A model generated the notes under the pieces. It searched no databases. It was not told the origin of the DNA and worked only from the letters and a program-made list of their open reading frames with translations. A DNA stretch of 64,000 bases, from contig CAZHOH010000002.1 in assembly GCA_964534185.1 (NCBI GenBank), positions 10,558-74,557 on the forward strand. Direction: 5' to 3'. This document shows, one piece after another, positions 8,421 through 49,906 of this stretch (the stretch's first letter is position 1; every line of letters begins with the position of its first letter). Position numbers and translations under genes: made by a program. This stretch comes from Candidatus Woesearchaeota archaeon. GTDB taxonomy: Archaea; Nanobdellota; Nanobdellia; Pacearchaeales; GW2011-AR1.

Positions 8421-9995
8421 CTAGGTCTCGAACTCGACAAGGTAACGCAAAACGTTCTGGTCTTCTTGATAAACGATCCACTCGTTGTTCATCACATGGC
8501 TGTAATTCGCCTTGCCAAACACGCTGTGGCAACCCCCCGGGGGGGAGGTATACCCGCGCGGGCCTGGAGCCAGGAAGGGTTTCCCGAGGACGACGTCGCC
8601 GAGGAACATGAAGGCCTTGCGGCCTCGCACTGCGCCGCGCCCTCCGGACCAGAACGAGTTCTGTAGGCTACAGTATCCCGCGGCCTTCTTCCAGTCGTCG
8701 GCCCAGTACGTTCCAGGTCCGAACATGGCTCCTGTGATGGCTACGCCCACCAGCTTCTTCGGCATCATCAGGCTCTTGGACAAGATTCCGCTGACATTGA
8801 CGGAGCGGGTGCCGTGGAACAGCAGGGCGGTTCTGGAGTCCCTATGGGCCGAGAGCGTCCCGTTCAGGTCGGGTCGCGAGCGAGGCGAGAACATAGGCTT
8901 CTCCCGGGAACTGGGCTTCTGCGCGGCAATCTGCGCCTGCTTGGCGTCGAACCGATGGCGGCAGGTCGGCTTGTTCGCCTCCCAGATGTTATGGACCTTC
9001 ATTTGCCCAAGTCCCCTGTGGAGGTTTCGCGTCGCCCGGGGCAGGAAGTCCATGATCCACTTGCCTTCCCCCCGGGGGTCAAGCCAGCGCATCTCGAGGT
9101 CTATCCCATCCAGGGGATTGCGGGTCATGTCGTCGATGTCCTCGAGGCTGGTGGACAAGGCTTGCTCGAACGCGTCAAGGTCCTGTTGCCATGTCAGGAT
9201 GTTCTTTTGCGACAGAACCCACGTGGACTCGTCCGCGCCGACGGGCTTGACCTTCGGGATGCGCGAGTAGAGCAGCCGACTGAATTCTCTCAGCCGCTTG
9301 TCCTTGACCTGACGGTCAGGGTCGTCGCCTACTTTCGACAGCCGCTTCAGGGCCTCCGTGAGGATGTGCCTACCTTCGTTGATGGCATCCTGGGTAGGGA
9401 TGCTGTCGTCCGCCATCGAGTTGCGCGTGTAGTTGGCGGTCGCTACGTTTAGGTCGTGCATCAACTGCATGACCTTCGGATCCGGCAGGGAGTCCGCGCG
9501 CCTCGCCTTGCTCGACTTCTTGGTTTTCTTGGCGGGAGCGTCTCCCGTCTGAATCTTCTTCGCCCCGGGCAATCCGGTCGACCTGGTTGCCTGCGGGCGG
9601 ACGAGGTAGCAGTCCTTGCCCTTTTTTGCCCGCAGGGCCTGTATCCCGGAGATCTTCGTCCATTCTCCGCGCTTGTCATTCTTGCTGTGCAGTTGCTTCT
9701 CGTATGCCTTCCGCGCCTCGTCCTCGCACATGGCCATGACGAACTGGAAGTCCGGACGGGAAGCGCCGGTGCGGCCCCACTCGAAATAGGCGTACCATTC
9801 CCCCGTCTGCTTGGATCTGACGACGGCCCCGTGGTAGAACTTGTTGGTGTCCCGTCCGTCCTGGGTGAAACATCCCAGGTCAGCGACCCCAGTGTCCTCG
9901 AACTCCCCATCCTTGACCGCAGGAGGGCCAAAGCACTCGAAGTCATCGGGGCCATGGCAAGCAGGAAACTGACGTTTTGGTAGTTTGGTAGCCAT
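8421..9995 (-). CDS. poly(ADP-ribose) polymerase-like protein (WGR + helical + PARP catalytic domains)
   Basis: WGR: KFYHGAVV...WYAYFEWGRTGASRP. Catalytic H-Y-E: LLFHGTRS, GPGTYWADD, NNEWIVYQEDQ. Confidence 0.85.
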   Translation of the reverse strand: MATKLPKRQFPACHGPDDFECFGPPAVKDGEFEDTGVADLGCFTQDGRDTNKFYHGAVVRSKQTGEWYAYFEWGRTGASRPDFQFVMAMCEDEARKAYEKQLHSKNDKRGEWTKISGIQALRAKKGKDCYLVRPQATRSTGLPGAKKIQTGDAPAKKTKKSSKARRADSLPDPKVMQLMHDLNVATANYTRNSMADDSIPTQDAINEGRHILTEALKRLSKVGDDPDRQVKDKRLREFSRLLYSRIPKVKPVGADESTWVLSQKNILTWQQDLDAFEQALSTSLEDIDDMTRNPLDGIDLEMRWLDPRGEGKWIMDFLPRATRNLHRGLGQMKVHNIWEANKPTCRHRFDAKQAQIAAQKPSSREKPMFSPRSRPDLNGTLSAHRDSRTALLFHGTRSVNVSGILSKSLMMPKKLVGVAITGAMFGPGTYWADDWKKAAGYCSLQNSFWSGGRGAVRGRKAFMFLGDVVLGKPFLAPGPRGYTSPPGGCHSVFGKANYSHVMNNEWIVYQEDQNVLRYLVEFET

Positions 9996-21467: not shown

Positions 21468-21483
21468 TTATGATTCCGAGTTG

Positions 21484-21504
21484 CTCCCGGGTTTTGCCCG
21501 GGAG
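21484..21504 (+). promoter_or_regulatory. 8-bp GC hairpin CTCCCGGG-ttttg-CCCGGGAG between the ligase and sigma genes
   Basis: Read directly. It sits 17 nt after the ligase stop and 27 nt before the sigma ATG. No U-tract. Confidence 0.35.
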
Positions 21505-21531
21505 ATGATTGAAAGAAAAAGGAGGATGACC

Positions 21532-22407
21532 ATGGGCAGAGGCAACGAGAAGGACGATATTCGCTTGTATCTCGAGCAAGCAGGGGAGTATGAATTGCTT
21601 ACGCGCGATGAGGAGATGCGTCTCGCGAGGGCCTGGCGTGAGAACCATGACGAGACAGCACGAGAGAAACTTGGCTTGCATAACCTGCGTCTTGTCGTGA
21701 GCATCGCCGTCAAGTACACGTGCTCCTTCATGTCTCTCATGGACTTCATCCAGGAGGGCAACATCGGGCTGATGAAGGCGATCGACAAGTTCGACCCAGA
21801 CAGGGGAAACAGGCTCTCCACCGTCGCTACTTGGTGGATATGGCAGTCGATCGGTCGCGCGGTAAGCGAGAAAGGCGGCAACGTAATCCGGCTCCCCGTC
21901 AATACGAGGAACATCCTGCACAAGTTCAGCAAGACCAAGTCGGAACTCGCCCACAGTCTCATGCGCGACCCGGAAGACGAGGATGTCATCGAGGCGATGG
22001 ACCTGTCGGAGCCCCAGGAGGCGTGCCTGAGGAACGCTTTGGCTTCCAGGGTCGTCTCCGTGGAGGACGAAGAGAGTAGCTGCGGGATCGAGAACCTCTT
22101 CGGAGAGCTCGAGGAGAACATCTCTGAGTTCGATGACTACCGGGTAAGGGACGCCATCAGCATTGCGCTTAACAGCAAGGAGCGCATGATCATCAGCCTC
22201 CGCTACGGGCTAGACGACGGCAAGCAACGCACGCTCGATACGGTGGGCCAAGAGCTCGAGCTGACGAGGGAGCGCGTCCGCCAGATCGAAAGCCAGGCCC
22301 TGGACAAATTGTCGCTCTTCCTGTCAGGGTCGCTTATTTATTTAAATCCACGCCACTCGGGCAAATCCGGCTTGCAGCAGGACTGCAAATCAGGAGTTGA
22401 CTGCTGA
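21532..22407 (+). CDS. sigma-70 family RNA polymerase sigma factor
   Basis: DFIQEGNIGLMKAIDKFDPDRGNRLSTVATWWIWQSI (regions 2.2-2.4) and LDTVGQELELTRERVRQIESQALDKL (region 4.2). ATG 21532 lies 6 nt after GGAGG. Confidence 0.9.
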   Translation: MGRGNEKDDIRLYLEQAGEYELLTRDEEMRLARAWRENHDETAREKLGLHNLRLVVSIAVKYTCSFMSLMDFIQEGNIGLMKAIDKFDPDRGNRLSTVATWWIWQSIGRAVSEKGGNVIRLPVNTRNILHKFSKTKSELAHSLMRDPEDEDVIEAMDLSEPQEACLRNALASRVVSVEDEESSCGIENLFGELEENISEFDDYRVRDAISIALNSKERMIISLRYGLDDGKQRTLDTVGQELELTRERVRQIESQALDKLSLFLSGSLIYLNPRHSGKSGLQQDCKSGVDC

Positions 22408-23355: not shown

Positions 23356-25599
23356 TCAGTTGTCAATTTCTTGATCCACGTCCACCCACTGGTTGGCCAA
23401 GGGGTAGATGACCTTCATGATCGCCTTGTCAATTCTATGGCTTTTCCCGTTGATCATGTGCCATATTACCCCCCTCAAAACGGCCGGGGCATCTTTCTGG
23501 GCGATTCCTAGCTTCTTCTTGGCCTGCGAGTCGCCCTTGTCGTAGTGCTTGGCCAGAAAGTCGTTGGCCATGGCCAAGATCCTAGACTTTGCCTCGTCGT
23601 ACTGGGACTCGATCTTGTCCTTGTATTGCTCGGCCAGTTCGCGCATTTCCTCCGGAATCTCGGCCATTCGAGACTCCGAGACCTTGCCGTCCGACATCGC
23701 CTCCCACATCAAGATGGGCGAGAGGCCCATCATGACCTTCGACATGTCCTTGTACCAGTCGGTCTTGACCTTTACCCTGCGGCCGTCCTGAAACCTTATG
23801 ACGTACCCCTCGAAGTGCTTGGCTTTACTCGCCACCTCCAGGCAGTCTTCCAGGCTCAGCGAGTCGTAGCGCCGAACGACATGCAAATCGGCCAGTCTGG
23901 CCCACTCCTCGACCAGGTCGCGCGGGTACTCCTCCCCGGTATGGCGGTTGAAGGCCGCCAGCACGTAGAGCCCCGTCTCGTCGTAGTCCAGGATGATCTT
24001 CTGGTCATGATTGATGATCTCGAAGACCAGCGTCGCCTCGTCCGGCAAGGCCGACAGGTTCTTGCGCGAGATGTACTGTGTGGCCCACTGCGACCCAGGG
24101 GAATGGAACGACCCCCGGCTGGCCACCTTGTACTCGCCCTGGTGGCGGTAGAGGACGCCAAGCCATCCATCCAGCTTCTCGTAGACCTCGTAGGGCTTGT
24201 CCCACGGGAGGTTCTCGCGAAGGGTCTCCTCGCGCTCCCCGAGGTTGAAGAACTTTGGAAACGCCCAGGCCACGCACTCCCCCGTCTCAAGATCATAGAT
24301 GTGGCCACGGCAGTTCAGCGTCACGTCGTCCCAGGCGCGATCGAATACACACTGGTCGGTATAGGTGTAGATCGCCAGCCTGTCGTCGTCCGTCCTGTCC
24401 CCGCGCAGCAGGCCCGCCTCCATGTACGCCTCCCTGCGGGCGACGTGCTCGTGGGGGTTCTCCTTACACCCGGGGAAGGAGTTCGTCGCGTAGGCGCGCT
24501 TGGCCTGGACGTAGTGGGGCCGCTGGGTAGCGGAGTCCCAGAACTTCAGGTACCCGCCGAACACGCAGCCGCCGTCAAGGTGGGCGATGTTGTTATAGCA
24601 TGGCCCCGCGGGGTCGGGGTTGTGCCCGAAGAAGACCCTCGGGGCGTCGGACGGCCATAGACGGTTCCACAAGATCCCCGTCTGCGCGTCGAAGTAGGAG
24701 TCCCCTCCGTAGTAGCGCATGTAGAGGCAGTCGGACCTGAACTGCTCGTCCGGGTCTCGCGTCGGGTCGAATCCCGCGTGGACAACGTAGCCATGGGGAA
24801 CCCGGAGGATCAGTGGGCAGCCCTTGAGGAAGGAGACGAACTCATCCTTTACCTGCTCGCCGTCCTCGTCCTGCTGGAACGAGTCGATCGTTGCCTGCAG
24901 GCCATGGGCTAGCTTGACCGGGTTGCCCTTGGCCCAGCGCAGGAACTTGTCCTCGTGGTTTCCAAGGACCATGTGGAGGTTGAGGGACATGAGGTGTCGC
25001 ACCACCCCCAAGGGGTCTGGCCCTCGGTCGATGACGTCCCCTACCGAGACGAGCACGTCCTGCTCGGGACGAAACCCAAGCTCGACGAGGCCCTGCTGAA
25101 ACTCGTCATAGCACCCGTGTATGTCGCCGACGATGATGTAGCGGCGGCCCCCGATCTCATCGCGGACGTCCTTAACGAGGACGCTGCACGGGGCTTCGCC
25201 CTCTACTGTCAACTCGTCGGCCTCCCTCCTCGATGGCGCCTGGAACTGCGAGAAGTACATGCCGAGGGCCTTTCCCGCGTTCTCCGGGCGCAGCGTGGGA
25301 TGTTTGCCACGCGAGGCGATCCTCTCGCGGCACACGTCGCAGTTCTCGTTCAGCCATACGATCTTAGTGTGATAACCGGCCTTCTTGGCGGGAGACAGGT
25401 ACCGGCGCCGCTGCTGGCGATTGTGGTTGATGCGGTCGACGACGACGTTGTCCCCGCGCGCCACTGCCTCCTCGAACAGGCGCAGGTGATCCTTGCCCTG
25501 ATCGTCCTGGGAAACCCGCACGTAGCCCTTGAGGTTCTTGTCGCAGTAAGTCGTCTTGCCCGACCCCTGCGGGCCAACCATCAGCACGAGATCGCTCAT
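23356..25599 (-). CDS. trifunctional polynucleotide kinase / metallophosphoesterase / RNA-ligase-type protein (Pnkp-like)
   Basis: N-terminus: GPQGSGKTT (P-loop kinase). Middle: VGDIHGC, GDVIDRGPD, GNHE (calcineurin-like phosphatase). C-terminus: YEKLDGWLGV (KxDG adenylyltransferase motif I). AAGGAGG RBS. Confidence 0.85.
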   Translation of the reverse strand: MSDLVLMVGPQGSGKTTYCDKNLKGYVRVSQDDQGKDHLRLFEEAVARGDNVVVDRINHNRQQRRRYLSPAKKAGYHTKIVWLNENCDVCRERIASRGKHPTLRPENAGKALGMYFSQFQAPSRREADELTVEGEAPCSVLVKDVRDEIGGRRYIIVGDIHGCYDEFQQGLVELGFRPEQDVLVSVGDVIDRGPDPLGVVRHLMSLNLHMVLGNHEDKFLRWAKGNPVKLAHGLQATIDSFQQDEDGEQVKDEFVSFLKGCPLILRVPHGYVVHAGFDPTRDPDEQFRSDCLYMRYYGGDSYFDAQTGILWNRLWPSDAPRVFFGHNPDPAGPCYNNIAHLDGGCVFGGYLKFWDSATQRPHYVQAKRAYATNSFPGCKENPHEHVARREAYMEAGLLRGDRTDDDRLAIYTYTDQCVFDRAWDDVTLNCRGHIYDLETGECVAWAFPKFFNLGEREETLRENLPWDKPYEVYEKLDGWLGVLYRHQGEYKVASRGSFHSPGSQWATQYISRKNLSALPDEATLVFEIINHDQKIILDYDETGLYVLAAFNRHTGEEYPRDLVEEWARLADLHVVRRYDSLSLEDCLEVASKAKHFEGYVIRFQDGRRVKVKTDWYKDMSKVMMGLSPILMWEAMSDGKVSESRMAEIPEEMRELAEQYKDKIESQYDEAKSRILAMANDFLAKHYDKGDSQAKKKLGIAQKDAPAVLRGVIWHMINGKSHRIDKAIMKVIYPLANQWVDVDQEIDN

Positions 25600-25656: not shown

Positions 25657-26646
25657 TCAATCGTCGATGCGGCTCAATAGGTCTGATTTGAGCGCGTCGG
25701 GCAATGCCTTCAAAATAAGCAGCCATTCCTCTGTGTTTTTGACGGGATGAAGAGTGAATATCTCGTTGGCCCTTGAAATGGCTTGATTTGCGACCCCGGG
25801 GCCTACGCGACCCTCAGCCACGTCGTAATGGAGCCTTTTCTCGTCCTCGTAATAGCAGACTCTCTCGGATAAAGGTTTGGTTTTTCGAGCCTCAAATCTA
25901 GCCTTTCTCAGATATATACCGAAGAACAACTCGCTGCTAGTAATCGTATTGTCACGCATGACGAGAGGGAATGTGTTGCCTGGGATCTCATTCAGGACGA
26001 GAGATACAGCCCTGCGTGATAGCCACCAGAAATGGCCCTGAAGAGAATGCAGGCAACCTATGTTAGGAACGTCTCTATGGTTCCTCTGCCATTGCTCCGA
26101 TGCATTGTCGTACCTCTTTCTGATCAGTTTGGGCAGGTAGCGCACCAGTAAGCCTGACACGTCATACGGGGCAGCATCATGGCGCAAGATCAGGGTGTCC
26201 GGGTCTACGACGGCCAGAAAATCCGAGTCGCCCTGATTGATGAATTTACGAAAAATGTCCCTGTACGAGGAGAAGAGGTGATGCCTGTTGTCTCCGGCAA
26301 AGACGCTCAGCGGTAGTCCTACGTCGGGCAGTTTCCTTTCGCGACGCTGGCATATCCATACATTACCAACGTTTTGAAAGGCGGTAACGGCGAGCCTGAG
26401 GCATCTGTGGATGACCTCGTCCGGCTCGTCATAGACCAAAGCAGCCACGTCTATCTTCATTTTTCTTCTAGGGGCGCCTCCCGTCGCAAGCACCGAACCG
26501 ATCCCCTCGACCTCAACCTGCTTGGCCTTGGCCTTGGCCTTGGCCTTGGCTTTGGCCGGAGGATTGAGCGAGAAGCCCCAGCACCTCTCAGATCCGTAGG
26601 AGCAACCTCGTCCCCCGGGGGACGAGGTTTTTCTTTGTCGAGCCAT
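25657..26646 (-). CDS. GT-A-like glycosyltransferase carrying the shared 31-aa N-terminal module and an (AK)n linker
   Basis: MARQRKTSSPGGRGCSYGSERCWGFSLNPPA + AKAKAKAKAKAK + a body with FLAVVDPD (DxD-like). TAGGAGG RBS. Confidence 0.65.
   Translation of the reverse strand: MARQRKTSSPGGRGCSYGSERCWGFSLNPPAKAKAKAKAKAKQVEVEGIGSVLATGGAPRRKMKIDVAALVYDEPDEVIHRCLRLAVTAFQNVGNVWICQRRERKLPDVGLPLSVFAGDNRHHLFSSYRDIFRKFINQGDSDFLAVVDPDTLILRHDAAPYDVSGLLVRYLPKLIRKRYDNASEQWQRNHRDVPNIGCLHSLQGHFWWLSRRAVSLVLNEIPGNTFPLVMRDNTITSSELFFGIYLRKARFEARKTKPLSERVCYYEDEKRLHYDVAEGRVGPGVANQAISRANEIFTLHPVKNTEEWLLILKALPDALKSDLLSRIDD
26521..26556 (-). repeat. hexanucleotide microsatellite (GCCAAG)x6 in frame, encoding (AK)6
   Basis: Plus strand reads cttggc x5 then tttggc. 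Confidence 0.9.
26604..26629. repeat. 26-nt perfect palindrome AACCTCGTCCCCCGGGGGACGAGGTT (copy A)
   Basis: Read directly. Identical copies are at 28763-28788 and 49612-49637. It covers roughly codons 6-14 of the shared N-terminal module. Confidence 0.9.
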
Positions 26647-26701
26647 GTTGCCTCCTACCAGCCTGTTGGGATGCCGAGAGAAAAATCCCTTCCAGGAGAT
26701 G

Positions 26702-26731
26702 TTACATTCAACTTCAAGTGGCCCGTATAAT
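26702..26731 (+). promoter_or_regulatory. candidate promoter giving a leaderless methyltransferase mRNA
   Basis: TTACAT (26702-26707), 18 nt spacer, TATAAT (26726-26731). The ATG at 26738 is 7 nt after the -10 box, and no RBS lies between. Confidence 0.4.
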
Positions 26732-26737
26732 TACGGA

Positions 26738-27880
26738 ATGAACATCGTATCGCTGTTTACGGGAGCCATGGGGCTAGATCTGGGGCTAGAGGCCGCGGGC
26801 TTCCAGGCCGAGGTATGCGCCGACACCGACCGGTTCTGCCGCGAGACCATCGCCGCCAACAAGCCAGAGTCCAGGATCCTCGATGACGTCGCCAAGGTAA
26901 CGATAGACACGGCGCCGCGAAACCCCTGCATAGTGGCAGGGGGGCCTCCCTGCCAGTCATGGTCGACGGCCGGCAGGCGCAAGGGGTTCGACGACCCCCG
27001 GGGGGAACAAGTCCTAGAGTTTGGGCGGGTGGTTGCCGACTTGCGGCCCCGCTTTTTCGTGATGGAGAACGTGCGCGGACTCACCTCCATGCTGACCGGC
27101 GACAACCGCTTGGCCATAAACGTCATAGAGGAAGAGTTCGAGTCCATCGGCTACAAGGTGGTCCGCGGCGTGCTGAACGCGGTCGACTATGGAACCCCAC
27201 AGTTTCGGGACAGACTCATCATGATCGGATCCCGCGACGGCGAAGACATCTTCCTGCCATTGCCCACGCACTTCCAGAAACACCAGGAAGAAAGCATGAG
27301 GTGGGTGACTCTTGGCAAAGCCCTCCAGGGCATAGCCATAGATTCCCCGGGGGACTTCCAGGAATTCTCGCCCCGGCGCAAATCATGGCTGGAGAAGATC
27401 CCCCCGGGGGGGAATTGGAAGAGCCTGTCGGAGCAAGACCAGAGGAAGGCCATGGGAGAGGCCTACAACTCTGGGGGAGGCAAGACAGGCTTCTTCCGCC
27501 GGTTGTCCTACGACGAGCCCTCCCCGACGCTGGTGACCTCGCCGACGCAGAAATCCACGATTTTGTGCCACCCGGAGAAAACCCGCCCCCTAAGCACGCT
27601 GGAATACGCGCGGATACAGGACTTCCCCCGGGGGTGGAGCATACGGGGGAACACAACGGAAGTCTACAGGCAGATAGGGAACGCCGTCCCCGTCAGGCTT
27701 GGGCGCGCAATCGGGCAGGCGTTGCTCTCGACCATGAGCAAAAGCCACGTGGTAAAGGCCTCCCGCGTGCGCAAAGACGCCAGCGAGGAAGAAAGGACGC
27801 CAGTCCGCCCGCGCAAGAGAGCGGAGGAAGAAGAGCTCACCAAAGCAGGCATGGAGGCCTGGGGGATGCAAGATGTTTGA
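26738..27880 (+). CDS. DNA (cytosine-5)-methyltransferase
   Basis: SLFTGAMGLDLG (I), GGPPCQSWS (IV), FFVMENVRG (VI), QFRDRLIMIG (VIII), YRQIGNAVPV (X). Start reset to ATG 26738. Confidence 0.92.
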   Translation: MNIVSLFTGAMGLDLGLEAAGFQAEVCADTDRFCRETIAANKPESRILDDVAKVTIDTAPRNPCIVAGGPPCQSWSTAGRRKGFDDPRGEQVLEFGRVVADLRPRFFVMENVRGLTSMLTGDNRLAINVIEEEFESIGYKVVRGVLNAVDYGTPQFRDRLIMIGSRDGEDIFLPLPTHFQKHQEESMRWVTLGKALQGIAIDSPGDFQEFSPRRKSWLEKIPPGGNWKSLSEQDQRKAMGEAYNSGGGKTGFFRRLSYDEPSPTLVTSPTQKSTILCHPEKTRPLSTLEYARIQDFPRGWSIRGNTTEVYRQIGNAVPVRLGRAIGQALLSTMSKSHVVKASRVRKDASEEERTPVRPRKRAEEEELTKAGMEAWGMQDV

Positions 27881-28658: not shown

Positions 28659-28745
28659 TGTTAAAACGAGCCCCCTCCACGTCCCCCCGGGGCGCCAGGG
28701 AAGGAATTTTTCTCTCGGCATCCCAACAGGCTGGTAGGAGGCAAC

Positions 28746-31127
28746 ATGGCTCGACAAAGAAAAACCTCGTCCCCCGGGGGACGAGGTTGTTCCTACGGAT
28801 CCAAGAGGTGCTGGGGCTTCTCGCTCAATCCTCCGGCCGCGGCCCCACGTCAGGCCAAGGTCGAGGCCAAGGTCAAGGCCAAGGTCAAGGCCAAGAACAA
28901 GGAGGAAGAGACGGTCATCGAACTAGCCTCATTGAACCCGGACGTCGTCTACTCGACCCAAGGCGGCGGGTTCGGCGACCACTGGCTCCTCTGCGGCGCT
29001 CTCCTACAGGCAAGTGAACTGCATGGCAAGCCATTCAGGCTGCGCCGGGGCAAGACGAGGGGTGAACCAAGGCCTTTCGCCGTGGACTACCAGGAGTACT
29101 TCGACACGCAAGGAGAGATCGTCGAGTCGGACAGCGAAGCCAAAGTCGTATTCTTCTCCAGGGATGGCGGCAAGAACGACCTCGAAAGGCTCATGAAAGA
29201 CGGGTATGACAATCCTGTCCCGGAGCGCATCATCCCCTGGAACTACCTTTTCGAGGTTCCCCTTGCCAAGACAAGAAAAACACACCTTGGATTGCGCTCC
29301 AGGGTCATCGCCTATCAGTTCAGGGCCAGATCCAGAAAGGACATCAAGGAATGCGCCCCCGGGGAGGAGGATCGCTTCCTGGAGGAGGCGGCGCTCGCCG
29401 GCTATAGAACGATCGAGGTAGGGAAGCATGTCCCCTTGGATAGATGTTTGGAAGTTCTGTCATGGTGCGAGTTCTACGTCGGCATAGACACAGGACCTAC
29501 CCACCTCGCGCTCAACGTCGGCGCGCCGACGTGGGTCGTCCGCAACGGCGCCGACCTTGACTTTACATACAAGCATAGGAACATCACCGCGCTTCCGCGC
29601 CTCGGGGACGCAGGCTCTCTCCTGACGGCCTGCCAGCCACAAAAGAAAGCCTCCTTCCTCGTCCCCTGCAAGAACCGCTTGGAGTTTGCCAAGCAGACTC
29701 TCCCTCTGCTGGATTTCTTCGTGGGACAGGGGCACGAGGTCATATTCGTGGACTACGATTGCCCGCAACGATCAGGGGAGTGGGTCAAGAGCAACCATCC
29801 CGGCGTGACGGTCATCGAGGTAAAGGACAAGAAAAAGTATAACGCTGGAGAGGCTCGCAACCTAGCGGCCGCGGCGGCTAGGAACGACTGGCTTTGCTGG
29901 ATGGACTGCGACATAAAAGTCCATCCGAACTTCCTGGCCGAGCTGTGCCGCCTGGAAAAAGGCCAGTTCCTGTTCTTCGCCAAGAACGACCTCGTCCCCC
30001 GCAGGGGGATGGGTGGCTTGATGGCATGCTCCCGAGACGCGTATTACGAAGCAGGAGGCTACAGCAGTTACTACGACGAGTACGGCGGCAAAGACATAGA
30101 GTTCAAGTACAGGCTCTTCCAGAACGGAGAGGAGCCGCTGCAAGTCAACCCGCTCTGCGTCGAGCACGTCCCGCACCCTGATCATCTAAGGGTTCAGTTC
30201 TACGACAAGAAGAACCGACGGCTCGCGATCAAGGACAGCAACGCGGCGCTCAAGCAACGCATGCGGCACTTCGCAAAGAGAAACGAGCCACCCCCGTGGC
30301 AATTGAACTATGACAAGGCCGAGTACTCTCAGTTCTTCAACAAGGTCATCGTCAAACAACTTAGCCTTCATGTCACCGACCATTGCAACTTCAACTGCAT
30401 CGGGTGCAACCACGCTTCCCCATACTACGAGCCGAACAATCTCGACCCGGTATGCTTCTCGGAGCCGCTCCAGAAACTGGGGGAATTCTGCTACGCCAAG
30501 GAAATACACCTAGTTGGAGGAGAACCCTTCCTGCACCCTGACCTGTACGGATTCATCCGCTCCATCAAGGAGAGCAACAAGGTAAGCGACTTCATTCGCC
30601 TCTATACAAACGGCTTCTGGCTGTCAGAGCGCGGCCTGCTGCGTCACGCGCCAGTCCTCGACCAAATAGATGCGCTTCATGTCAGCATGCACCCCGAGTC
30701 CCCCGGGGGCGAGGTTGTTGAACAGATGCTGAGAACGATCAAGAAGAAACATCACATAGTGGCCCAGAAACACCGTAACGACAGGTTTTACAAGGTCGGG
30801 TTTCGAGAATCCCCCGCTGGGAGAGGATCCTGTCCCGTCAAGAAGTGCATGCACCTGTTGCCTGACGGAAGACTGGTCAAATGTGCCGTCGCGGGCTACT
30901 ACGCCCCGAAAAGCGAGGATGTTACGAAAGGCTTCATGGACCATTCCGGATCCGCTTTCTACGATGTGTCCCAGGGAAATTGCGAAAGCTTTGCCAAGTG
31001 GTATAATGGCATGGCTCAGTGCTGCAGGTTCTGTGGCTACGCGGAAGACTCCATACCATACGTGGGCAGAGTTGCAGGAGTTGGTCATGTCAAGAATCAG
31101 CGGAACAAAAGAGTGGGCGACGGATAG
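28746..31127 (+). CDS. multidomain protein: shared N-terminal module + GT9-like + GT2 + radical SAM (SPASM/twitch-like Cys tail)
   Basis: MARQRKTSSPGGRGCSYGSKRCWGFSLNPPA. GGGFGDHW...VGIDTGPTHLALNVGAP (GT9/heptosyltransferase-like). FLVPCKN...WMDCD (GT2 DxD). HCNFNCIGC (CxxxCxxC). C-terminal CPVKKC...C...CCRFCGY. Confidence 0.8.
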   Translation: MARQRKTSSPGGRGCSYGSKRCWGFSLNPPAAAPRQAKVEAKVKAKVKAKNKEEETVIELASLNPDVVYSTQGGGFGDHWLLCGALLQASELHGKPFRLRRGKTRGEPRPFAVDYQEYFDTQGEIVESDSEAKVVFFSRDGGKNDLERLMKDGYDNPVPERIIPWNYLFEVPLAKTRKTHLGLRSRVIAYQFRARSRKDIKECAPGEEDRFLEEAALAGYRTIEVGKHVPLDRCLEVLSWCEFYVGIDTGPTHLALNVGAPTWVVRNGADLDFTYKHRNITALPRLGDAGSLLTACQPQKKASFLVPCKNRLEFAKQTLPLLDFFVGQGHEVIFVDYDCPQRSGEWVKSNHPGVTVIEVKDKKKYNAGEARNLAAAAARNDWLCWMDCDIKVHPNFLAELCRLEKGQFLFFAKNDLVPRRGMGGLMACSRDAYYEAGGYSSYYDEYGGKDIEFKYRLFQNGEEPLQVNPLCVEHVPHPDHLRVQFYDKKNRRLAIKDSNAALKQRMRHFAKRNEPPPWQLNYDKAEYSQFFNKVIVKQLSLHVTDHCNFNCIGCNHASPYYEPNNLDPVCFSEPLQKLGEFCYAKEIHLVGGEPFLHPDLYGFIRSIKESNKVSDFIRLYTNGFWLSERGLLRHAPVLDQIDALHVSMHPESPGGEVVEQMLRTIKKKHHIVAQKHRNDRFYKVGFRESPAGRGSCPVKKCMHLLPDGRLVKCAVAGYYAPKSEDVTKGFMDHSGSAFYDVSQGNCESFAKWYNGMAQCCRFCGYAEDSIPYVGRVAGVGHVKNQRNKRVGDG
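28854..28901 (+). repeat. 12-nt in-frame tandem repeat (GCCAAGGTCRAG)x4 encoding AKVE/AKVK
   Basis: gccaaggtcgag gccaaggtcaag gccaaggtcaag gccaagaacaag. Confidence 0.85.
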
Positions 31128-39884: not shown

Positions 39885-40247
39885 ATGAAGGGTCAGCCAT
39901 GCGAGAACCAGACAACGAAAGGAAATATCGTGGGGGACACAGAAGATACACAGGCGATCAATGAGGCGATCAATGAGGCCATCGAACTGAATATAATGGG
40001 ACAGGTTGGAGATCGCGTTCCAGACTATTGTTCGTCGCTGGACGCCGTAGCGGAGGCAGAAGCCAAGGCAAGAGAGATGGGCCTATGGCACGAGTATGGA
40101 AGGGCGCTGAAGGATCTGCTCCTAGGCAACGCCGACCTGCTTGTAATGAGCACCGAGCAGTTCATGACAGGAGCTGCGGCCACGGCCGAACAGAGATCCC
40201 GGGCCATCCTGTCCGCTGTTAAACAAGCAAGGAAAGGAAAGAAGTAA
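39885..40247 (+). CDS. hypothetical protein (120 aa), C-terminal tail shared with the next gene
   Basis: Ends ILSAVKQARKGKK; the next gene ends FLSAIKQAREGKK. Confidence 0.45.
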   Translation: MKGQPCENQTTKGNIVGDTEDTQAINEAINEAIELNIMGQVGDRVPDYCSSLDAVAEAEAKAREMGLWHEYGRALKDLLLGNADLLVMSTEQFMTGAAATAEQRSRAILSAVKQARKGKK

Positions 40248-40283
40248 TGGCCAGGAGATTCTTCTACGACACAGAGTTCATAG
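40209..40283 (+). repeat. 75-bp direct repeat, copy 1
   Basis: ctgtccgctgttaaacaagcaaggaaaggaaagaagtaatggccaggagattcttctacgacacagagttcata. Four mismatches to copy 2. Confidence 0.9.
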
Positions 40284-40786
40284 AATATCCACCCCTGTTG
40301 AAGGACGGTCGATCCCGGAAGGGAACGATCGACCTAATAAGCATTGGCATCGTGTCAGAGGAAGGGGAGACGTTCTACGCCATCAACAGCCACTTCGATC
40401 CGACCATGGCCAACCAGTGGGTGACCGACAACGTCCTCTCGAAGCTCCCCTCGAGGGAGTCGCCGGAATGGATGTCCCTGCCGGCCATGAAGAAGAGGGT
40501 GCTAGGCTTCCTGCGGCCATCGAATGATGACCCGGTCGAGTTATGGGCATACTACGGGGACTATGACCACGTGGCCCTCTGCTGGTTATTCGGATCCATG
40601 GTCGAATTGCCAGAGGGAATGCCAATGCTAACCATGGATCTGAAGCAACTTGCCAAGCACCTCGGGGATCCTGACCTACCCGAGCAAGGGGAAGGAGAGC
40701 ACGATGCCCTCGAGGACGCTAAATGGAACCTCGAGGTCTTCGAGTTTCTGTCCGCTATTAAACAAGCAAGGGAAGGAAAGAAGTAA
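40247..40786 (+). CDS. DEDDh 3'-5' exonuclease (DnaQ-like fold)
   Basis: FFYDTEF (ExoI DxE), YYGDYD (ExoII), EHDALEDA (ExoIII Hx4D). TAATG start/stop overlap. Confidence 0.8.
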   Translation: MARRFFYDTEFIEYPPLLKDGRSRKGTIDLISIGIVSEEGETFYAINSHFDPTMANQWVTDNVLSKLPSRESPEWMSLPAMKKRVLGFLRPSNDDPVELWAYYGDYDHVALCWLFGSMVELPEGMPMLTMDLKQLAKHLGDPDLPEQGEGEHDALEDAKWNLEVFEFLSAIKQAREGKK

Positions 40787-40822
40787 TGGCCAGGAGATTC
40801 TTATACGACACAGAGTTCATAA
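40748..40822 (+). repeat. 75-bp direct repeat, copy 2
   Basis: 539 bp downstream of copy 1. Spans the exonuclease stop plus a second start. Confidence 0.9.
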
Positions 40823-46473: not shown

Positions 46474-46510
46474 GACTTCTCCGTTCTAGTCGAACATGTT
46501 AGGCGGCTCG

Positions 46511-48604
46511 TCACCACGTGGCGGCCAATCGAAAGGATAACACTCCGAAAGCGCACGCAGCAGCAACTGGGACGACGCCATTTCCCAGCAGGCGTAGCTG
46601 GTCTGTTCGACGCTCGTGGTCGAGTCTGTCCATCCCGGAGGCCACCCCATCAGCCATTCTACAAAGAGCGGGTTCAAGAAGCGGCTCGGCTTCAAGGACT
46701 TGCTCCCATTCCCTGAAGTCCCCTGGCCCCGGGGGCGCGAGGGGGAGGATTGTTCCAGATGGGCCTCGAAAACCTGCGACCACACCTTTGCCAGCGTCTC
46801 GACATGAACCTGATGGCTGCCGCTCTCCGACTGCCCCTTCCGAAGAACCTGCTCGACGCTCATAGCCCTGCCCCCGTTGGGCACGTTCGGCGTTGGCCAG
46901 AGACAGTTCCACACGTCGCTCCACATTTTCGCTACGACCTGGAGGCTCGTCGGAGTCTTCCGGGGGCCTCCCTTCATGCGCCGCTTCATCGCCATGTGGG
47001 CCCCAGGGGTCTTGTTGTCGTCGTTCGCCACCGCCGTTGGCCACAGCGGCCCATTCTGCCGCCCGGAGGATGGCCTCTTCTCCCGGTCTCGCGCCGGCGA
47101 TGAAGAGACGCTTTCGGACATGGCACAGTCCGACTTCCGCCGCCGAGAATAGTCCTGCTTCAACGTCGTAGCCCAGGCCTTGTAGGTCTCTGGCGACCTC
47201 GTCGAAGCCGACGTTAACGTGGTTGGGTACGTTCTCGAAAAAGAGGACGCGGGGTTCTGCCTCCTGGACGATCCTCCTGACGCTGGGCCAGAGGTGGCGG
47301 GGATCCTCCTTGCCCTTGATTCTCCCGGCACAGGAGAACGGCTGGCAGTTGTGGACGACAGTTCCGTCTGCCACGTAAGACTCATCGTCTCGGACTGCGA
47401 TGTTATAGACTGTGTCCTTGCCAACAGGGGCGTTTGAGCTGACGCGCTTCCATCCAAGACCTTGGTCGACGAAGGATGCACGATTGCGATCAGGGATGGA
47501 CACGATCCATGACGGCCTTTGTCTGACGAGTCTGCCTTCGATGACCTTATCTTTTGCGCTTTGGCAGCATCGAACGGCAGCAATGACCCCAAATGCTCGC
47601 TGAGAGAGCAGAGCGACACTGAGAGCAAGGGCCTTGCTCGCGGACTGAACTCGACGAAATCCCCCCTTTCCAACAGGGTTCTTATGTGCTCCTCCGTCTC
47701 CAGACAAGCATCCCTCAAGCAAGGCCCTGGCCTTTCCCTCTCCGAGGGAAAGGTACTTTCCGGGGATACGCTTGCCGCGGGCATGTCGTCCGAATTGCTG
47801 CAAGAACTTGAAGAAACATGTTCTTGTAATGGCGAATCTGGTTGTTGTTCGCTCCTCGCTCCTGTAGGCGCTAAGCCCTGCTTCTTGTATTCGCCTTTCA
47901 AGTTCGTCTGCCTCTGGTCTGTTGCAACAGATGTTGACACGACCATTTCTGTGGGAAGGAGATTTTTGGAGCCAACCGTCAGCCAAGTACCTCCCGACGA
48001 GCCACCAGAATTCTTTTGATCGTTTGTCTGGGCGCACTGGAGGGAGAGCCTGAGCCACCCAATGCGCTCCGGTGAGTTCCTTTGCCTGCACCCAATCAGG
48101 GGAACCAAAAGATCGCTGTCTTCCCTTTTGTTTGCACCTAGCGAAGAAGGGGTGCTCTTCTGTGCATCTGATTCCCGGGGTTCCTTGCGCCTTGATTTCC
48201 CTGATTGGGGCACCGTCCTTGCGCATGACCGCTGTGACTGGCTTCCATCTGGCTCGGTGGGTAAGGACCAGATCTCCAACTCGAACGTCTTCGATGGGGA
48301 CATATCCTCGCTTGCATAAGACGAGGGTTCCTGAGACGAAGCACGGGTACCCTCCAGTGACGCAATCCACGACGCCACGCCATCTTCTGCCGTCGAAGGT
48401 CTTGGCATCCGTCCAAATAGGCGCGTCGTCCAGCCGCCCTTCTTCCATGCGTGATGCCAGTACTTCGATGGCATATCCTTCCCTCTCCACGTAGCAGACG
48501 ACGCGAGAGCCTCCGACCGCCATTCGGAGTCCGAGCTCGAGTCCGCCGCCGCCGGAGCAGAGAGACAGAACGTTGAAGGTACGTATGCCCACATCTTTGT
48601 TCAT
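46511..48604 (-). CDS. DNA (cytosine-5)-methyltransferase interrupted by an intein
   Basis: LSLCSGGGGLELG (I), GGYP|C...HN|CQPFS (IV split), LFFENVPN (VI), RKRLFIAG (VIII), LLGNGVVP (X). See findings for the second open frame. Confidence 0.85.
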   Translation of the reverse strand: MNKDVGIRTFNVLSLCSGGGGLELGLRMAVGGSRVVCYVEREGYAIEVLASRMEEGRLDDAPIWTDAKTFDGRRWRGVVDCVTGGYPCFVSGTLVLCKRGYVPIEDVRVGDLVLTHRARWKPVTAVMRKDGAPIREIKAQGTPGIRCTEEHPFFARCKQKGRQRSFGSPDWVQAKELTGAHWVAQALPPVRPDKRSKEFWWLVGRYLADGWLQKSPSHRNGRVNICCNRPEADELERRIQEAGLSAYRSEERTTTRFAITRTCFFKFLQQFGRHARGKRIPGKYLSLGEGKARALLEGCLSGDGGAHKNPVGKGGFRRVQSASKALALSVALLSQRAFGVIAAVRCCQSAKDKVIEGRLVRQRPSWIVSIPDRNRASFVDQGLGWKRVSSNAPVGKDTVYNIAVRDDESYVADGTVVHNCQPFSCAGRIKGKEDPRHLWPSVRRIVQEAEPRVLFFENVPNHVNVGFDEVARDLQGLGYDVEAGLFSAAEVGLCHVRKRLFIAGARPGEEAILRAAEWAAVANGGGERRQQDPWGPHGDEAAHEGRPPEDSDEPPGRSENVERRVELSLANAERAQRGQGYERRAGSSEGAVGERQPSGSCRDAGKGVVAGFRGPSGTILPLAPPGPGDFREWEQVLEAEPLLEPALCRMADGVASGMDRLDHERRTDQLRLLGNGVVPVAAACAFGVLSFRLAATW
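47348..48343 (-). mobile_element. 332-aa class-1 intein with LAGLIDADG homing-endonuclease domain
   Basis: Starts CFVSGTLV (block A). Contains CTEEHPFF (block B TxxH), LVGRYLADGW and LLEGCLSGDGG (two LAGLIDADG motifs). Ends VADGTVVHN, followed by the +1 Cys of CQPFS. Confidence 0.85.
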
Positions 48605-48631
48605 TCCTGGCCCCTGTTGCCTGTAAATATT

Positions 48632-49654
48632 CTACGGGGCCAGCCTCCTTTTGATTTCCTCGCGGACAAACACGCGCGTCGCGTCCAGTTTTTCCTGGAG
48701 AGTCATCTTATCCCGCTCCTTTCCCCAGTAGAGAACGCTCACGTCGGGCCTGTCATGGAGCGGAAGCCATCCTGGCACGTATAGTCCCCAGAACTCGTCT
48801 ACCGAGATCGCCGGCATACCAAAGGAAGGGGCAAGAAAGCCCCCGCCTCCCATGCTTAATGTAAACTCCGCCCCGCTCATTACCTCTAGCTGTCTCTGCA
48901 GGTACTCGGTTCGAACCGGCTTCTTCAGTGTCTCCAGAAACATAGTCTCGTTGCCAATCCTGTTACGGTCTACCCGATCCAGCCGATCTAGGCCCGTGTG
49001 TGGGGCCCAACCAACCCCGATGACTTCGTAGCCGTAGTGGTTGACCAACTCCTTTAATTCCAGCCATTCTAGGAAAGGCAGGCTCCTGCCTCCCGCCGTG
49101 CCACCAAACTCGTCTCCTTTCAGCCACCTTTCGGACAAGCAGGGTATGAAGCACACGTACTTGCGAGGATCCTTCTTGACCCAGGACCAGTCCATCTTCG
49201 CATTGACCAGTTCCCTCGGGAAGTCCCTCCGCATCTTGGAAAATAACTTCAGAACGGCGCTCTTTCCCGTCCCCTCCTTGGCCGGGAAATGATATGAATC
49301 GCTGAACTGGCTCCAAACCTCTTCCTTCAGGTCGTCAAGCCACTCGGAATGTATATTGACCTCGTCTCCGAGCCACCGCTTCAACAGGAAAGCTGGCCAT
49401 ATGCGGGTGACGCATACCTCGCCGAACTCACCGCCGTGAATGATGTTCCTAAGATCCAGATCTATCTTCTCCCTGGGACGGCGCAGAGGGGAGGCCTCAA
49501 CCTCCTCCTCAACCTTGGCCTCAACCTCCTCCTCCTCAACCTTGGCCTGACGTGGGGCCGCGGCCGGAGGATTGAGCGAGAAGCCCCAGCACCTCTTGGA
49601 TCCGTAGGAACAACCTCGTCCCCCGGGGGACGAGGTTTTTCTTTGTCGAGCCAT
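48632..49654 (-). CDS. GT9-like glycosyltransferase carrying the shared 31-aa N-terminal module and a VE/AK linker
   Basis: MARQRKTSSPGGRGCSYGSKRCWGFSLNPPA + AAAPRQAKVEEEEVEAKVEEEVEA + a GT-B-like body. Start reset to ATG 49654 with a TAGGAGG RBS. Confidence 0.65.
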   Translation of the reverse strand: MARQRKTSSPGGRGCSYGSKRCWGFSLNPPAAAPRQAKVEEEEVEAKVEEEVEASPLRRPREKIDLDLRNIIHGGEFGEVCVTRIWPAFLLKRWLGDEVNIHSEWLDDLKEEVWSQFSDSYHFPAKEGTGKSAVLKLFSKMRRDFPRELVNAKMDWSWVKKDPRKYVCFIPCLSERWLKGDEFGGTAGGRSLPFLEWLELKELVNHYGYEVIGVGWAPHTGLDRLDRVDRNRIGNETMFLETLKKPVRTEYLQRQLEVMSGAEFTLSMGGGGFLAPSFGMPAISVDEFWGLYVPGWLPLHDRPDVSVLYWGKERDKMTLQEKLDATRVFVREEIKRRLAP

Positions 49655-49906
49655 GTTGCCTCCTACCAGCCTGTTGGGATGCCGAGAGAAAAATTCCTTC
49701 CCCCGGGGGGCGCGGGAGGGCGTCCATGGCATCGCCGAGGAGGCCAAGCCCTATGCGCTCCTGTTGGCAGTGACGCGAGACTCGGGTGCGTCGGCATTCG
49801 TCAACCTAGTTCAGGATCGGTATGACCTTCACGTACCCGCGACGAGAGGGCCACAGCATGCACCATCCAAACATGATAGCCTCTGGCCTGTCGTACGAGA
49901 TCTCGG

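Follow-up and report, generated by a model that had tools for sequence, protein, structure and literature searches.

How can one gene accommodate a mobile intein at the codon of its catalytic residue and still keep a second reading frame open across it? This question is raised by a C5 DNA methyltransferase gene in a 64,000-nucleotide (nt) stretch of DNA, hereafter the window (GenBank assembly GCA_964534185.1 of a Candidatus Woesearchaeota archaeon, contig CAZHOH010000002.1, positions 10,558 to 74,557, forward strand). A preliminary description of the window, made from its letters and open reading frames (ORFs), had reported an intein in this gene. Our analysis indicates that a class-1 LAGLIDADG intein lies directly before the catalytic Cys of the α chain of a phage-type α/β C5 methyltransferase encoded in two frames, and that the β chain is probably read through the intein. 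The features of the α frame are as follows (aa, amino acids).

46511..48604, minus strand: α ORF, whose 697-aa product, the precursor of a C5 DNA methyltransferase bearing motifs I-VIII and X, contains the intein (PF00145, 7e-25).
48344..48604, minus strand: N-extein, 87 aa, with motif I (LSLCSGGGGLELG), ending with the GGYP of motif IV (aligns with M.HhaI and M.HaeIII).
47348..48343, minus strand: intein, 332 aa, composed of a HINT splicing domain into which a LAGLIDADG homing endonuclease is inserted (profiles, alignment and model).
48143..48166, minus strand: block B, CTEEHPFF (TxxH), with T61 and H64 invariant in 20 relatives.
47972..48004, minus strand: LAGLIDADG motif 1, WLVGRYLADGW, with D122 and G123 invariant.
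47690..47725, minus strand: LAGLIDADG motif 2, ALLEGCLSGDGG, with D216 and G217 invariant.
47345..47359, minus strand: block G (VVHN) and Cys+1, the catalytic Cys of motif IV (PCQ) (profile and alignment).
46511..47347, minus strand: C-extein in the α frame, with CQPFS, ENV (motif VI), RKRLF (motif VIII), low-complexity sequence shadowing the +1 frame, PPGPGD...W and QLRLLGNGVVP (reading and alignment).
46568..46600, minus strand: motif X, QLRLLGNGVVP, in the C-extein.

The ORF reads MNKDV...VDCVTGGYP / CFVSGTLV...(332 aa)...VADGTVVHN / CQPFSCAGRIKG. The boundaries 47348-48343 proposed in the preliminary description are exact to the base, and the hallmarks on which it relied (C1, TxxH, two LAGLIDADG motifs and the terminal HN) are all present. 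The sequence has the attributes of a class-1 intein, with Cys1 (CFVSGTLV), TxxH and a terminal HN followed by Cys+1. The comparison with intein profiles that had been recommended as a check gave a match of the insert to the Pfam family Hint_2 (35 bits, cutoff 28.4) and to Intein_splicing, and a match to the NCBIfam family TIGR01443 intein_Cterm (26.7 bits with the whole ORF and 22.8 bits with the insert alone, cutoff 15.6). Only LAGLIDADG_3 is marginal (19.5 bits, below its cutoff of 22.5). When 20 homologous inserts with 36-90% identity to that of the window were aligned, the invariant positions proved to include C1, T61, H64, D122-G123 (LVGRYLADGW), K191, D216-G217 (LSGDGG), D320 and H331-N332. 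Both Asp residues of the two endonuclease motifs (RYLADG and LSGDG) are therefore among them. A phmmer search of the Protein Data Bank with the single intein sequence gave no match; a profile of the intein family matched PI-PkoII (2e-15), PI-SceI and the gp41-1, RecA, DnaB and GyrA inteins. The AlphaFold2 model of the intein, built on 18 relatives, has a mean predicted local distance difference test (pLDDT) score of 93.3. In Foldseek, the model matches best with the intein TliVMA (7qsu, E 2e-18, TM-score 0.71), followed by other solved homing inteins, PI-SceI, PI-PkoII and PI-PfuI (E 2e-18 to 1e-12); the free-standing LAGLIDADG enzymes I-DmoI and I-Tsp061I rank after the inteins (E about 1e-6). 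The insert is thus a bona fide class-1 intein with a LAGLIDADG homing-endonuclease domain. It resembles PI-SceI/VMA1, TliVMA, PI-PkoII and PI-PfuI in Cys1, TxxH, HN with Cys+1, a HINT domain carrying a two-motif LAGLIDADG endonuclease, and insertion at an active-site nucleophile, at a sequence identity of 12-17% to the solved examples among the Foldseek matches. Unlike inteins of the PI-SceI type, it resides in a DNA methyltransferase and its coding sequence is devoid of stops in the +1 frame.

When the insert is removed, the protein aligns without gaps across the junction with M.HaeIII (GGPPCQSWS) and M.HhaI (AGFPCQAFS). Therefore Cys+1 is the catalytic Cys of motif IV, equivalent to that of GFPCQ in M.HhaI and GPPCQ in M.HaeIII, as the preliminary description had claimed. 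The spliced sequence also aligns with the intein-free alleles of three further loci (L006, L008 and L010), which establishes the clean extein junction that it had wished to see confirmed. Motif IV is uninterrupted only in the spliced form (GGYP-CQPFS), and the unspliced precursor is presumably inactive. The additional idea that methylation is thereby made conditional on splicing, in the manner of a regulatory switch, is unsupported; inteins habitually insert at active-site nucleophiles. The intein-free allele of L008, a metagenomic contig, reads GGYPCQPYS, and its DNA is close to the joined flanks of the window. The neighbouring genes are the same at the two loci, with an NTP_transferase upstream (63% identity to that of the window) and a peptide deformylase immediately downstream (46% identity); the first 180 aa of α are 64% identical. 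The 60-bp intein-free site of this contig (CTCGTGGATTGCGTCAGTGGCGGCTACCCGTGCCAGCCATACTCCGTCTGCGGGACCCAG) would be the expected homing target, where the endonuclease is predicted to cleave.

Is the host then a methyltransferase of the usual kind? The PF00145 DNA_methylase profile matches the ORF in two pieces flanking the insert (7e-25). The spliced α sequence reaches 7e-31 but covers profile positions 1-166 of 324 only. LCSGGGG (motif I), GGYP-CQ after splicing (IV), FFENV (VI) and RKRLF (VIII) follow one another in the expected order. On the 3′ side of RKRLF, frame 0 turns into a G/R/E-rich low-complexity stretch, which is followed by PPGPGD..W..VL..P..PAL, RMADGVASGMDRL and QLRLLGNGVVP (motif X). 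Frame 0 thus contains motif X (GNGVVP) and no motif IX, and does not have the layout of a single-chain C5 enzyme; motif IX (FVEWLMGWPPGWT) is carried by the +1 frame. Most of the C-terminal third of the annotated ORF merely shadows a second coding frame, and the enzyme is consequently not of the single-chain Dcm type. The window does contain an ordinary single-chain C5 methyltransferase gene elsewhere (26645..27880, plus strand), which matches PF00145 over the full profile (5e-63) and has no intein.

The second frame, referred to as β, comprises the following features.

46486..48594, minus strand: +1-frame ORF (β), 702 codons from the ATG at 48594, stop-free over the α gene including the intein.
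46486..47043, minus strand: β module, with WPTAVANDDNK...KRRMKGG, WPTPNVPNGGR, LNPLFVEWLMGWPPGWT and the tail PFDWP..EPPNMFD (selection and homologues).
46627..46677, minus strand: motif IX, LNPLFVEWLMGWPPGWT, within the β module.
48585..48625, minus strand: shared translation-start region, AGGGGCCAGGA ATG(α) AACAAAG ATG(β)TGG.

On the 3′ side of motif VIII, the +1 frame encodes LWPTAVANDDNKTPGAHMAMKRRMKGG, LWPTPNVPNGGR and FLNPLFVEWLMGWPPGWT, the last of which takes the form of C5 methyltransferase motif IX; RMADG, found in frame 0, is what EWLMG becomes when read one base out of register. The β tail ends 25 nt past the α stop, and PFDWP..EPPxMF is conserved beyond that stop. WPTP repeats together with LNPxFVEWLMGWPxGWT are found in the +1 frame of the window and of L004, L005, L006, L008, L010 and L012-L016. 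Among these two-frame loci, L004 and L005 are independent assemblies, L006 is the isolated Synechococcus phage Yong-M2-251 and L010 is a Phaeobacter genome. A frameshift introduced by sequencing or assembly was considered and rejected, as the same arrangement recurs in the independent assemblies and in the isolated phage. In L008 and L010, the JGI and NCBI pipelines annotated the +1 ORF and not α. The β product has 374 database homologues; all 120 that were listed stand alone, with no catalytic domain, as 'hypothetical proteins' 124-370 aa long in which Pfam recognises no family. Moreover, an artificial chimera composed of α (motifs I-VIII), the +1 segment and α (motif X) matches PF00145 at positions 1-313 of 324, compared to 1-166 for spliced α.

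Substitutions between the window and L004 were counted in both frames. Over α codons 521-610, frame 0 has 1 synonymous and 22 non-synonymous changes and the +1 frame 18 and 5. Over codons 611-645 the counts are 6 and 8 in frame 0 compared to 2 and 12 in the +1 frame, and over codons 666-697 they are 8 and 4 compared to 5 and 7. It is thus the +1 frame, and not frame 0, that is under purifying selection at codons 521-610. A selected frame that goes 0, +1, 0 along the gene could also be obtained if a single polypeptide were produced by programmed ribosomal frameshifting, from frame 0 to +1 after motif VIII and back to frame 0 before motif X. The gp50 protein of Propionibacterium phage B22, in which motif VIII, a TPxA motif, FVEWMMGLPDGW and GNGVVP follow in this order in a single frame, would agree with such a product. 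However, two opposite shifts would be required, and inspection by eye revealed no obvious slippery sequence near codon 520, no systematic scan having been run. At the 3′ end both frames are read, with the β tail PFDWP..EPPxMF extending past the α stop and motif X in frame 0. Frameshifting also fails to account for an open +1 frame that begins with the gene itself and continues across the intein, or for the overlapping start codons. Finally M.EcoHK31I, which has been studied experimentally, consists of two polypeptides (PMC2836561). We consider frameshifting very improbable.

Two separately translated chains are the reading that we prefer. Downstream of the β ATG, the +1 frame has 0 stops over 693 α codons, compared to 21 in the +2 frame. 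In the 46 other window ORFs that reach 200 codons, the mean density of stops in the +1 frame is 0.042 per codon, from which about 29 would be predicted for α; the single-chain methyltransferase gene at 26645..27880, used as a control, has 22 in 411 codons. Synonymous-codon shuffles of α, which preserve the protein and its codon usage, gave a mean of 9.1 +1 stops, and 0/2000 were stop-free. When the intein alone was shuffled, the means for the window, L004 and L005 were 3.8-5.1 stops, with stop-free fractions of 0.0065, 0 and 0.0005 respectively. The survey was then extended to 85 intein-bearing loci, reduced to 30 intein representatives at about 85% identity, with the following result.

Hosts with a +1 ORF carrying WPTP repeats and motif IX, 7 representatives: 0 +1 stops, 8-30 +2 stops, at most 0.5% of shuffles reaching zero.
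Hosts with a shorter +1 ORF ending in ..SLSDILE..KYFLS.., 4 representatives: 0 +1 stops, 11-29 +2 stops, at most 1.5% of shuffles reaching zero.
Hosts without a +1 ORF, 19 representatives: 2-35 +1 stops, 4-66 +2 stops, shuffles as expected.

The +1 frame is therefore stop-free in 11/11 diverged intein representatives from hosts with a +1 ORF and in 0/19 from single-frame hosts; the intein of Escherichia phage P1 isolate OP279344 contains 19 such stops and that of B22 contains 2. The property spans inteins that are 36-55% identical and have 39-62% G+C. These comparisons bear on another explanation of the locus, namely an ordinary intein in a single-chain methyltransferase of which only frame 0 is translated, the similarity and the lack of stops in the +1 frame being by-products of composition or ancestry. 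Frame 0 is indeed open and is annotated as one 697-aa protein in the window and its relatives, and its motifs PPGPxD..W and GNGVVP are conserved. However, the +2 frame has 21 stops, the other genes of the window have about 0.042 +1 stops per codon, and shuffles that preserve protein and codon usage give 3-10 stops in the intein alone. The stop-free frame persists at such low identity and over such a range of G+C, and it is absent from the 19 inteins of hosts without a +1 ORF. Taking into account also the 18/5 and 1/22 ratios at codons 521-610 and the restriction of spliced α to half of PF00145, we regard this explanation as highly improbable.

The shorter +1 ORF was observed in a distinct set made up of about 50 IMG/VR gut-phage contigs of about 40% G+C (L023-L076) and of L018, whose C5 methyltransferases are single-chain with motifs IX and X in frame 0. 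The ORF starts 33-77 codons before the intein, crosses it stop-free (21-29 stops in the +2 frame) and ends 117-138 codons past it in the conserved ..GMMQNG..SLSDILE..VPxKYFLS...

The start region provides a further link between the two frames. The β ATG (48594) lies 10 nt after the α ATG, and an in-frame GTG of α overlaps the β ATG (GATGTGG). The overlap takes the form GATGTGG in the window and L004, ATGTGG in L006, L008 (read there from frame translations), L012 and L013, and GTGTGG in L005. Both starts lie behind one Shine-Dalgarno-like sequence. Because the β start overlaps or adjoins that of α, read-through of the intein by β would be needed.

Several observations weigh against the preferred reading. 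Modelled alone with AlphaFold2, β has a pLDDT of 63.6 and a predicted template-modelling score of 0.30, and this poor model was kept out of the fold search. In its N-terminal part, the +1 frame shows no constraint on the amino acids (1/8, 25/79 and 7/13 synonymous/non-synonymous changes); if translated, this part would be an unusual feature, a spacer of about 500 aa free of constraint. Start codons from which β could begin internally exist, including an ATG at 47121; several candidates for a single internal start were found, none conserved in all the loci compared. In EBPR siphovirus 2, the +1 frame has stops across the N-terminal part and the intein, and a +1 ORF with GWPTP repeats lies downstream; because of these stops β must start internally in this phage. 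Finally, B22 has motif IX in frame 0. In its gp50 protein (L003), codons ~505-575 form a G/P/E-rich 'linker' overlying +1-frame sequence in which two LLxTPxA motifs precede a terminating stop, and frame 0 contains motif IX and the third such motif, LLPTP. The arrangement resembles a β ORF that an indel has partly fused into α. On balance we lean, by no great distance, towards an intein that is a passenger in two overlapping genes, spliced in frame 0, unable to splice in the +1 frame and serving there as an unconstrained spacer of about 330 aa in β, and purged of +1 stops by selection on the host.

The arrangement has a precedent in M.EcoHK31I, in which α has motifs I-VIII along with X, and the chain with motif IX comes from another frame of the α gene (PMC2836561). 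By that description, the window locus has the same partition: its motif IX chain lies in an alternative frame, is under selection, and the arrangement is conserved in 11 loci. Two differences are apparent. The β of M.EcoHK31I lies wholly inside α and has an internal start, whereas the +1 ORF of the window is open from the α start, crosses the intein and ends 25 nt past the α stop. In addition, the WPTP repeats of the window are in the +1 frame, whereas the target-recognition domain of M.EcoHK31I has been assigned to α. P1 Dmt, unlike the window enzyme, is single-chain with motifs IX and X in frame 0.

The preliminary description had also suspected that the insertion point was unusual and undescribed. 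This is not the case. Among the 120 best matches in a database of 5.8 billion proteins, 107 have an insert of 280-400 aa between the same junction residues (..P/CF and HN/CQ or HN/CT), and therefore the placement of the intein is not due to chance. An identical junction is found in more than 100 protein-database clusters, and a pattern scan confirmed the intein at the same site in 217 IMG/VR viral contigs; methyltransferase relatives occur there on viral contigs of up to 442 kb. The junction was read directly in the Dmt of the P1 isolate OP279344 (1013 aa, GGTP/CF...HN/CQAFS), in B22 gp50 (GGSP/CF...HN/CQDLS) and in EBPR siphovirus 2 gp44 (SCP/CF...HN/CQPFS). Full-length intein matches lie under annotated cytosine-methylase genes of RCS47, vB_EcoM-Ro157c2YLVW, Mannheimia phage 587AP2, Pseudomonas phage Lana and several Escherichia/Erwinia jumbo phages, and a partial one under such a gene of Lactobacillus phage Nyseid. 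The inteins of isolated phages are 25-36% identical to that of the window. C-5 DNA methylase (IPR001525) is among the previously reported intein hosts (bioRxiv 10.1101/2025.01.02.630785), and in the literature searched nothing beyond this host list was found that spells out the PCQ insertion point. The intein itself is one more member of a widespread allele.

Canonical P1 was examined as a carrier and rejected: its dmt (NC_005856) encodes 754 aa and has no intein match, and only isolate OP279344 and P1-like phages carry the intein. Such patchy presence fits the expectation for a homing element. The Dmt of isolate OP279344 ('del res del mod', L002) contains a 341-aa intein at PCQ within its 1013 aa, compared to the 754 aa of the reference Dmt (L011); as the difference of 259 aa is not the length of the intein, the two dmt alleles differ beyond the intein.

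Against this background, the intein could still be a decayed or domesticated one that splices but has a dead endonuclease and no mobility, or the whole methyltransferase locus could be a pseudogene. The LAGLIDADG_3 score below its cutoff would be in line with decay. However, neither the two catalytic Asp residues nor the conserved Lys show any variation, and the endonuclease domain is confidently modelled and matches PI-SceI and I-DmoI. Moreover, between the window and L004, its 91%-identical relative, the intein shows 67 synonymous and 37 non-synonymous changes in frame 0, and is therefore under purifying selection over its full length, endonuclease domain included. The presence of the intein is patchy among close relatives (L008; canonical P1 compared to OP279344), and α and β are both selected. 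Decay in either form is thus unlikely.

Inteins in phage DNA methylases, namely mycobacteriophage DNMT-1/2 (PMC5050341), the Dorothy_75 family (PMC9957025) and the C-5 methylase hosts of the bioRxiv list, are homologous to that of the window and share with it a phage setting and a patchy distribution. All methylase hosts given by Kelley et al. 2016 (PMC5050341) are of the N6_N4 type. The intein of Pacc40 gp60, a mycobacteriophage methylase, is homologous to the window intein over its full length (38% identity). We considered this 'DNA methylase' intein as a possible instance of the same case and rejected it, the host being an N4/N6 methylase with a different junction (...MHV/CLARG...VKN/CPLQ). 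The intein-bearing methylase of cluster F mycobacteriophages (L001) goes under the name 'anaerobic ribonucleoside reductase large subunit' in RefSeq and DNA methylase in GenBank, with 'DNA helicase' in some GenBank records; such misnaming probably spread via the intein.

From these elements a course of events can be proposed. Cys1, the Thr and His of block B, the terminal His-Asn and Cys+1 would carry out standard four-step protein splicing, recreating GGYP-CQPFS, so that the catalytic loop would exist only in spliced α. In alleles that lack the intein, the endonuclease would cleave at the conserved sequence of motif IV, and repair would copy the intein in. We infer splicing from the conserved residues and the fold matches, and homing from the intact catalytic Asp residues, the purifying selection and the syntenic empty allele of L008. 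Frame 0 would yield α, with motifs I-VIII plus X, and the +1 frame would yield β, with the WPTP repeats and motif IX. Translation of β would begin at the ATG overlapping or adjoining the α start, behind the same ribosome-binding site, and would continue through the intein DNA in the wrong frame, so that the functional module would come after the unconstrained spacer, about 500 aa long. Such translation would account for the elimination of +1-frame stops from the intein. The active enzyme would be composed of spliced α and β. The unexpected part is the dual-coding α/β host gene and the adaptation of the intein to it, of which no description was found in the literature searched; nor was any description of inteins in overlapping genes found there.

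The surroundings of the gene were also inspected. The window has 57.5% G+C and encodes, among others, an NAD-dependent DNA ligase, a peptide deformylase, nucleotide-sugar enzymes and the following.

8421-9995, minus strand: PARP catalytic domain and WGR domain.
23356-25599, minus strand: polynucleotide kinase-phosphatase-RNA-ligase fusion (Pnkp-like).
21481-22407, plus strand: sigma-70 factor.

The presence of PARP-WGR, the Pnkp-like fusion and the sigma-70 factor is reminiscent of the gene content of very large phages, and a large phage is probably the source of the DNA. A megablast search of known phages with positions 38000-60000 of the window gave no match, nor did Rfam and tRNA scans of the window. 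Three 97-99% identical copies of a 140-169-nt element are present, at 26554-26693 (minus strand), 28698-28866 (plus strand) and 49534-49702 (minus strand). Each copy comprises the ribosome-binding site GGTAGGAGG, an ATG and the opening ~33 codons (MARQRKTSSPGGRGCSYGS(K/E)RCWGFSLNPPA), among which is a palindrome that is perfect over its 11-nt arms (CCTCGTCCCCCGGGGGACGAGG). A common 5′ end, followed by repeats of the AKV/KAK type, is thus present on three genes that differ otherwise; one of them (48632..49747) lies directly upstream of the methyltransferase. A 74-nt direct repeat, 96% identical, occurs at 40209-40282 and 40748-40821 with a spacing of 539 nt and spans a ribosome-binding site and the first codons (MARRFFYDTEFI). 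Its first copy is at the start of an Rv2179c-like exoribonuclease ORF (40247..40786) and its second at the 3′ end of the same ORF, where a new ATG is present.

The dual-coding setting of the intein matters more than the intein by itself. If the proposed reading is correct, an overprinted host gene shapes the synonymous sites of a mobile element, and the locus is a rare instance of a selfish element visibly constrained in its sequence by a second reading frame of its host. The locus would also provide a natural test case for the translation of long, fully overlapping ORFs from overlapping start codons. Many phage ORFs designated 'DNA cytosine methylase' in databases would be half shadow sequence, with the part containing DNA recognition and motif IX labelled as an unrelated hypothetical protein or left unannotated, and cloning the annotated ORF alone may yield an inactive enzyme. 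Carried further, the same reading would imply a large class of phage C5 methyltransferases, most of it unannotated, that are two-frame α/β enzymes produced from a single ribosome-binding site.

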